Positions 29,413 to 30,126 are shown, counted from the stretch's first letter. The stretch is DNA of 64,000 nucleotides from Myxococcales bacterium (GCA_947499075.1 CANMNA010000001.1:8615-72614), one strand, 5' to 3'. Numbers and translations: made by a program. The notes: generated by a model from the letters alone, not told the origin.

Positions 29413-29441
29413 TTGACACCCAATGCTATCGCCTCTACACT
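29413..29441 (+). promoter_or_regulatory. Predicted sigma70-type promoter (TTGACA-17 nt-TACACT)
   Basis: TTGACA at 29413-29418, a 17-nt spacer, then TACACT at 29436-29441. No gene follows until rpsL at 30127. Confidence 0.5.
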
Positions 29442-29991
29442 TTCGCCCCCACGCCCGGGCCGACTGGCTTGCGGCGGGTTCCGGCACGGTGCCGGAACGT
29501 CCCCCCATCGGGAAAGGAGCCTTCGCAGCGCACAATTTCCGGTCGGCGACGCTGACTGGACCGTGATCAACCTGATGCTGAACCTAGTTCGGCGGTAGGA
29601 GCGAGCGCGGAGTGCACTGCAAGAGGTCGGCGGCCTACACGGACCCCGGCCCTCCGCGAAGGTACGATGGGCGCCCTCACGGGCCCAACTGCATCCAGCT
29701 CGCGCTGGTTGCGCCGCAGCGCCGCTCAAAATGGCGTTTCGGTTGTTCAAGTTGGGCTTTCTGGTGGTGAATCCTCGCGAAGCGGCATACCGCGGGTCGA
29801 GGTCGTGTCAGTTGGCTGCGCTGCAGTCGGGTGACGTGCCTCGGTTTGGCGATGTTGCAAACGCACTCCGGCGAGCTCAGGCGCGCACCAGCTGGTGTAC
29901 CGCCGGTTCGCCAGGTACCAGACCGCCTTGCCAACGCGGATCCCCGCGCAAACAGGCCTTGGATCGAAGTTGCCGAGGTCCAAAGAAGGCC

Positions 29992-30079
29992 GAAGCCAGA
30001 ACGAAGCCAGAACGAAGCCAGAACGAAGCCAGAACGAAGCCAGAACGAAGCCAGAACGAAGCCAGAACGAAGCCAGTTC
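29992..30079 (+). repeat. Tandem repeat, 11-bp unit GAAGCCAGAAC x7 perfect plus 1 degenerate
   Basis: Units start at 29992, 30003, 30014, 30025, 30036, 30047 and 30058. The degenerate unit GAAGCCAGTTC is at 30069-30079. The array ends 47 nt before the rpsL ATG. Confidence 0.95.
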
Positions 30080-30126
30080 GAAAGAACACTGAACGCAGGT
30101 CGAACGCAACAGGGAGTCCCGCCAAG

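Follow-up and report, generated by a model that had tools for sequence, protein, structure and literature searches.

The ribosomal str operon of a Myxococcales bacterium is preceded by several hundred nucleotides that hold no evident gene, and we asked what this interval does. It lies at 29413-30126 in a stretch of 64,000 nucleotides (GCA_947499075.1, CANMNA010000001.1:8615-72614), called the window below, which belongs to a metagenome-assembled genome (MAG) with 62% completeness. The original prediction described a near-consensus promoter followed by a leader of roughly 680 nt. It left two possibilities, an unusually long structured leader controlling the rpsL-rpsG-fusA operon or an independent non-coding RNA, and proposed a search with Rfam models and a comparative alignment with a covariation check. 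Here we show that the promoter and the first part of the interval are conserved among relatives, and we weigh what the RNA encoded there may do.

Gene content of the interval and its surroundings

Pfam searches identified rpsL (30127-30531), rpsG (30588-31073) and fusA (31164-33251) on the plus strand, followed past fusA on the same strand by rpsJ, rplD, rplB, rpsC, rplP, rplE, rplF and rpsE. Together, the downstream genes form an uninterrupted ribosomal-protein run of the type str-S10-spc. The rpsJ gene (33324-33632) comes directly after fusA and is followed by rplD (33717-34340); the segment 33252-33716 leaves no room for tuf or rplC at those positions. On the other side, the divergent neighbour is a 564-aa ORF without Pfam match on the minus strand (27449-29143), the start of which is about 270 nt from the leader promoter.

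The rpsL gene has a Shine-Dalgarno (SD) sequence GGGAG (30112-30116) and an ATG start (30127-30129), and all relatives carry a GGAG-type SD sequence and an MPTINQL start at this gene. The claim that rpsL at 30127 provides the next credible start codon after the promoter was borne out by the Pfam S12 match and by conservation of the start in 30 relatives. Stops were present in all three plus-strand frames, as had been stated (29553, 29564-29585 and 29596). After 29596 the rpsL frame has no further stop before rpsL, and this stretch, which is not conserved, contains an ATG at 29731. The open frame extends 528 nt upstream of the rpsL ATG (29599-30126), the in-frame ATG at 29731 would give a 266-aa ORF, and several relatives have long open frames of 218-261 aa 5' of rpsL. 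We read the open frame upstream of rpsL as chance in T-poor, GC-rich sequence, since the upstream part is unconserved and the MPTINQL start is universal. A Pfam search of the ORFs inside 29413-30126 returned no match.

The promoter and its conservation

The promoter on the plus strand consists of a -35 hexamer TTGACA (29413-29418), a 17-nt spacer and a -10 hexamer TACACT (29436-29441). It had been ranked as the best sigma70-like promoter in the window, and it proved to be the only sigma70-like site scoring at least 10/12 on either strand of the full 64 kb. It was also the sole promoter-like site in 28800-30600, where shuffled sequences lead one to expect 0.3. All 24 relatives compared have TTGACA (TTGACG in one), a spacer of exactly 17 nt and a -10-like hexamer, and in these genomes the promoter lies 60-129 nt 5' of the core motif described below. 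Between the core and rpsL, a second promoter-like site, a weak one, was found in only one of 24 leaders (L039).

Comparison of the rpsL upstream regions revealed that GCCCCC abuts the -10 hexamer in all relatives. In the window, this conserved run is part of the C-rich discriminator and predicted start region TTCGCCCCCACGCC (29442-29455, plus strand), which would place the transcription start site at about 29448-29450. The rRNA-operon promoters of relatives have the identical build, TTGACA, 17 nt, -10 hexamer and GCCCCC(C), and such a build appears to mark strong promoters throughout the family. Because the rRNA promoters share it, we read the C-run as a strong-promoter discriminator and not as part of the RNA fold. 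By analogy with the rRNA promoters of E. coli, the leader promoter may be growth-rate controlled. The rRNA operons of relatives L085 and L086 show this arrangement (TTGACA, 17 nt, a -10 hexamer and GCCCCC(C)) 5' of the 16S gene.

A conserved RNA fold occupies the first part of the interval

Conservation was mapped on the 1.5 kb upstream of rpsL by comparing the window with its relatives. The region of about 29405-29680 was conserved in relatives of the same genus and of other genera in the family, and its conserved blocks are the two promoter hexamers, CCCAUCGGGAAAGGAGCCUUCGCAG, CUGCAAGAGG and CCCUCCGCGAAGGNACGAUGGGCGC. Conservation in relatives was confined to about 29405-29680 and a later block at 29763-29796; most of 29680-29760 and 29797-30100 is particular to the window genome. 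The proposed structured leader of about 680 nt thus contains real structure, but not along its full length, only in the first 240 nt or so and in one later block.

The fold was derived from RNAalifold together with inspection of the relatives' alignments. A core motif of 168 nt (29504-29671, plus strand) was delimited by alignments A1-A6, RNAalifold, covariance-model matches and covariation. In this core, a bulged P1 stem (29504-29510 paired with 29665-29671) leads into an asymmetric internal loop, GGAAAGGAG (29511-29519) opposite UA (29663-29664), then into P2 (29520-29524 paired with 29658-29662) and a three-way junction with P3 and P4. P3 is a variable hairpin closed by 29525-29533 with 29612-29620, A29621 lies between P3 and P4, P4 pairs 29622-29631 with about 29645-29653, and CCGC (29654-29657) forms the junction strand J4/2. 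The minimum free energy (MFE) structure of the window's own 29449-29680 has the consensus architecture, with z = -2.72.

The comparative alignment, checked for covariation, yielded a structured RNA with covariation in all four helices. In the 25-sequence alignment, 95% of the cells at paired positions were standard pairs, as compared to 36-53% when the partners were slid by 1-3 columns. Ten pairs had changed on both sides, and none of 500 column shuffles reached the observed covariation. P1 showed compensatory changes from C-G to G-C in genus g9 and from A-U to G-C in genus g23, P2 showed one from C-G to U-A in genome L048, and several were seen in P3 and P4. All four core helices are supported by compensatory changes.

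Across the family the core measures 112-182 nt, and the length differences are non-multiples of three. The loop, the junction strands and the helix-closing pairs vary at isolated positions only, family-wide, and P3, the tip of P4 and the 5' hairpin vary freely among genomes. The nine bases of the internal loop were identical in 24 of the 25 genomes, with G>A at the last base in the other. Eight nucleotides of the loop, GAAAGGAG, are perfectly complementary to the 3' tail of 16S rRNA in this family, and one genome carries GGAAAGGAA in their place. In relatives, 16S rRNA has the 3' end GGATCACCTCCTTTCA; the part complementary to the loop is CCUCCUUUC, and the tail is also given as ...CACCUCCUUUCA. 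An orphan AAGGAG had been pointed out at this place. Its position (29514-29519) and its missing start codon stand, as no ATG, GTG or TTG occurs within the next 12 nt, but "orphan" does not describe the near-invariant heart of the motif. An anti-SD-like CCCUCC is conserved in the junction, with C>U at one position and a compensating change in one genus; its CCCU belongs to P4, as backed by that kind of change.

Variable and genome-specific parts of the leader

Upstream of the core, the MFE fold places variable 5' hairpins at 29452-29498 (plus strand), including GTTCCGGCA-cgg-TGCCGGAAC at 29478-29498, a perfect hairpin of 9 bp. Each relative has a hairpin at this 5' position, differing in sequence and length and with a GNRA loop in most genera. 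The strong hairpin singled out earlier is therefore present, but as a variable peripheral element and not as a key one.

Downstream of the core, a second conserved block on the plus strand, GGTGGTGAATCCTCGCGAAGCGGCATACCGCGG (29763-29796), is kept in the closest relative found, the metagenome contig L099, which also shares the promoter, the 5' hairpin and the core with the window. Part of the block, CGCGAAG, nearly repeats the 3' strand of the core, CCGCGAAGG. In other genera, the spacer carries one or two copies of YCCCGCGAAGNGG, which is likewise a near-repeat of that strand. Other genera also have, 3' of the core, a hairpin followed by GATCGCG, and a covarying hairpin of the form GGYGGCAnAUCnnCGGG...CCCGnAnGAUGCCRCC. 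Judged by these sequence elements, the leader is modular and large. Pairing of the 5' strand of P2 with the downstream CGCGAAG was considered as a possible switch and found no support, since CGCGAAG did not covary with P2 in L048 or the L031 group.

A weak terminator-like hairpin CGCCGCTCAAAATGGCG followed by TTTCGGTTGT (29720-29746, plus strand) is not conserved, and a terminator scan of the window returned none on the plus strand. No conserved intrinsic terminator was found after the core in the 24 leaders, six of which have weak candidates at non-homologous positions, and terminator attenuation was rejected on this ground.

The spacer at 29797-29990 is non-conserved and cannot be aligned even to the closest relative; L099 has a spacer of 209 nt, which, apart from the shared block, does not align to that of the window. 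It is followed by an 11-bp tandem array of CGAAGCCAGAA (29991-30076, plus strand; 7.8 copies, 100% identical), which is specific to the window genome, being missing from all 24 relatives and from L099. The array had been taken as the end of the leader. It does lie at 29991-30076, but it is not part of the conserved element, and comparison with the relatives marks it as a genome-specific insertion. The window has the longest spacer between core and rpsL, 449 nt vs 178-398 nt in relatives, because of the array and the other non-conserved spacer. DNA runs agree with the window letter for letter until they reach the array, and there their contigs break off; 7.8 copies is thus a provisional figure for the population.

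Distribution of the core

Covariance models R1 and R2 were built from the core alignments and were searched against the class, 107 genomes in all. The core occurred once per genome in 25 of the 37 genomes of the family, in 8 of its 14 genera; the family makes up the entire order within the genome set used. The other 70 genomes of the class gave no genuine copy in the covariance-model search. An extra match in L056 was weak, 44 nt long and inside a 620-aa coding gene, and was rejected as chance. A scan of 185,579 species genomes for the exact pattern returned 24 genomes already known from the model and three chance matches, and a metagenome scan added three new members. In every genome with a long enough contig (24/24), rpsL followed 178-449 nt downstream on the same strand.

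Six genera of the family are without the core but have kept the promoter and a long leader, from which it follows that the core is dispensable in close relatives. On these comparisons, parts of the family seem to have lost the presumed sensor of the leader or put something else in its place. Genera g6 and g8 (L016 and L017) have a C-rich start, a 5' hairpin and, about 370-380 nt 5' of rpsL, the promoter, but no core. In other families of the class, a short leader follows rpoC immediately.

Comparison with known RNAs and evidence from RNA libraries

The original prediction had failed to match the interval to RNase P RNA, tmRNA, SRP RNA, 6S RNA or a tRNA, and searches with established tools agree. 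Rfam 15 covariance models run on 28900-30700 gave no match even at E<=10, none was found at E<=1 when the leaders of four compact relatives were searched, and ARAGORN detected neither tRNA nor tmRNA in the interval. Together with Pfam, these searches found no gene and no known RNA family there.

Mimicry of rRNA is the usual hallmark of ribosomal-protein leaders. Comparison of the core with the family's 16S and 23S rRNA by blastn gave only chance-level matches of 8-13 nt. The L4/L24 region of E. coli 23S rRNA presumably contains GGAAAGG, but this does not apply to the family, the 23S rRNA of which has GGAAAC at that place. The rrn leaders of relatives carry boxA GCTCTTTGAAAA. Antitermination of the boxA type was rejected because the str leaders share no k-mer of at least 9 nt with rrn boxA.

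Metatranscriptome contigs of close relatives cover the window at 29604-29754 and 29767-29889, and the former spans the weak terminator-like site at 29720-29746. The core is represented among relatives' RNA contigs in three metatranscriptomes. One of these contigs continues for 77 nt beyond the 3' end of the core, and in two of the metatranscriptomes the contigs are from organisms resembling genus g9. We take the contigs as making transcription plausible and not as proof, since they are few, short and from relatives, and such libraries can contain DNA.

A probable leader of the ribosomal-protein run and its alternatives

The interval is best read as a lineage-specific, unusually long ribosomal-protein leader that heads the str-S10-spc run. 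We consider it probable, with a good deal of room for doubt, that it is the 5' untranslated leader of a unit running rpsL-rpsG-fusA-rpsJ-rplD and onward, with the core as a cis-acting sensor. Between the two possibilities first put forward, the leader is favoured over the independent RNA by the covariation, by the promoter in 24/24 relatives and by the same-strand linkage to rpsL. The core always lies 5' of rpsL on the same strand, no conserved terminator stands between them, and no second promoter does either, the one weak site in L039 excepted. From its place the core probably controls expression of the ribosomal-protein genes. The core matches no Rfam model, and we regard it as a structurally new RNA family within a known functional kind.

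Transcription would begin at about 29448, at a strong promoter built like the rRNA promoters of the family, and the first 230 nt or so of the transcript would fold into a variable 5' hairpin and then the 168-nt core. The core may then be bound by something that the operon encodes, a ribosomal protein (e.g. S7, L4 or S8) being the most likely candidate, and an excess of this product would lower expression of the downstream genes. We propose such autogenous feedback because the RNA is single-copy, always heads the ribosomal-protein run and has an rRNA-like promoter. S7, L4 and S8 are all candidates because str, S10 and spc are consecutive on the same strand, with no other promoter of at least 10/12 in the window; L4 is included because the S10 genes directly follow fusA in the window genome. 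The output could be Rho-dependent termination, stability of the long-leader transcript or long-range occlusion of the rpsL ribosome-binding site. Such outputs are more likely than classical terminator attenuation, given the lack of a conserved intrinsic terminator and a start codon 180-450 nt away. This choice is by elimination, as the alternative-pairing switch, boxA antitermination and terminator attenuation were unsupported.

An alternative, which we hold to be unlikely but deserving of attention, is a small RNA of about 230 nt that acts in trans, either made independently or processed from the leader; the position of the core before rpsL would then reflect shared transcription only. A processed or separate RNA comes into consideration because the core is far from the start codon and the spacer is mostly unconserved. 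The conserved strong promoter would suit such an RNA, as would the end of conserved structure about 180-450 nt before rpsL, and the g9 RNA contigs comprise the core plus about 30 nt only, although spacer divergence could explain this. Against it, no conserved terminator lies 3' of the core, and rpsL would still be read through the core because the other promoter-like site occurs in L039 only. In addition, one RNA contig extends beyond the core by 77 nt, another lies at 29767-29889, further conserved modules follow 3' of the core, and linkage to rpsL on the same strand is without exception (24/24). It is very improbable that the conservation is instead due to a small protein gene on either strand or to binding sites at the DNA level. 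There are ORFs on both strands (e.g. 29211-29750 on the minus and 29413-29598 on the plus strand), but they lack Pfam matches, there are stops in all plus-strand frames, and invariant blocks alternate with hypervariable hairpins. Coding was rejected because the length differences are not multiples of three and compensatory changes keep the helices.

Two further alternatives concern what the core would sense, and we regard both as distinctly unlikely. The near-invariant unpaired nucleotides of junction and loop, set among variable peripheral stems, are typical of aptamers, and no rRNA mimicry was found by blastn against 16S and 23S rRNA; the core could on this account act like a riboswitch and sense a growth- or translation-related small molecule or ion, e.g. 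an alarmone. However, no known riboswitch model matches, no expression platform is recognisable, and the single gene context with one copy per genome points to a ribosomal-protein leader (following the approach of PMC7247131; see also PMC2704228). The internal loop could also serve as a decoy or standby SD sequence: by pairing with free 30S subunits at their 16S 3' tail, it would let the operon sense the abundance of ribosomes or subunits directly. The complementary octamer is identical in 24/25 genomes, is displayed in a loop and is not followed by a start codon, and the anti-SD-like CCCUCC is conserved in the junction. This proposal is drawn from complementarity, however, and purine-rich loops containing GGA are also common as protein-binding sites; one genome deviates within the octamer, and the CCCU of CCCUCC is accounted for as part of P4. 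A wider form of the same idea, which we think less probable still, would make the whole leader of 400-680 nt one multi-domain regulatory RNA, comprising the 5' hairpin, the core with its three-way junction, a repeated CCGCGAAG block and the hairpins A and B. The near-invariant 8-nt SD-like loop of this RNA would capture the 16S tail of free 30S. If true, the level of ribosomal-protein synthesis would follow the subunits themselves, sensed directly, and not one free ribosomal protein.

Relation to known ribosomal-protein leaders

Among bacteria, feedback on ribosomal-protein synthesis is understood in detail for E. coli and, to our knowledge, for few other species only. For the ribosomal-protein leader that we favour, a close parallel is the Pelagibacter rpsL motif, found in the 5' UTR of rpsL with a run of 22 ribosomal-protein genes downstream (Meyer et al. 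2009, PMC2704228). That motif is about 95 nt long, follows rpoC, sits near rpsL and is known from one lineage, and multiple candidate regulators of the S7, L4 and S8 type were argued for (PMC2704228). Both RNAs have a bulged P1 and a three-stem junction, conserved bulge and junction nucleotides and hairpins of variable length, and both are lineage-restricted and head a fused str-S10-spc run. The consensus differs, as the Pelagibacter motif has UUUUGG-UU-GGAAUG... where the Myxococcota core has CCCAUCG-GGAAAGGAG-CCUUCGC..., and a by-eye comparison with the published supplement found no conserved block in common. The Myxococcota RNA is also longer (112-182 nt), stands behind a promoter of its own, is separated from the start codon by 180-450 nt and is followed by extra modules. 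Convergence is at least as likely as homology.

Leaders of rpsL have been called multiform, being lineage-specific and without a common structure (Naville & Gautheret 2010, PMC2965389). Like the present RNA, they are structured and lie 5' of rpsL, and they are presumed to act in str-operon feedback (PMC2965389). Unlike them, the present RNA is not defined by an intrinsic terminator with an antiterminator, of which none is conserved here, and it matches no Rfam family. We take their lineage-specific leaders to be the Rfam families rpsL_psuedo and rpsL_ricks.

In E. coli, the str operon is under autogenous control by S7 (cited in PMC2965389 and PMC2704228), which acts at a site between rpsL and rpsG. 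The control proposed here is similar in that a protein encoded by the operon would regulate rpsL-rpsG-fusA, but the Myxococcota RNA lies upstream of rpsL and not between rpsL and rpsG. With the E. coli S10 leader, which serves attenuation and translational control by L4, it shares the form of a long structured 5' leader before a large ribosomal-protein operon; it differs in having no Rfam S10-leader match, no terminator hairpin and no similarity to the L4/L24 region of the family's 23S rRNA. A binding partner has been shown for none of the rpsL leader candidates compared (PMC2965389, PMC2704228).

The core adds to this class a well-supported structured RNA from uncultured freshwater Myxococcota, with strong covariation, a single copy per genome and strict synteny. 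It is unusual for the class in being part of a long and modular leader, in its distance from the start codon and in its near-invariant loop complementary to the 16S 3' end. The likeness in topology to the unrelated Pelagibacter motif hints at convergent control of fused str-S10-spc operons.

The window's own sequence occurs in sequencing runs of lake-water and freshwater metagenomes, and the relatives are MAGs of uncultured Myxococcales or Myxococcota, from lakes where a source is stated. Three records labelled Klebsiella pneumoniae or Enterobacteriaceae (L059, L062 and L067) carry a leader of the Myxococcota type, and their organism labels look wrong.
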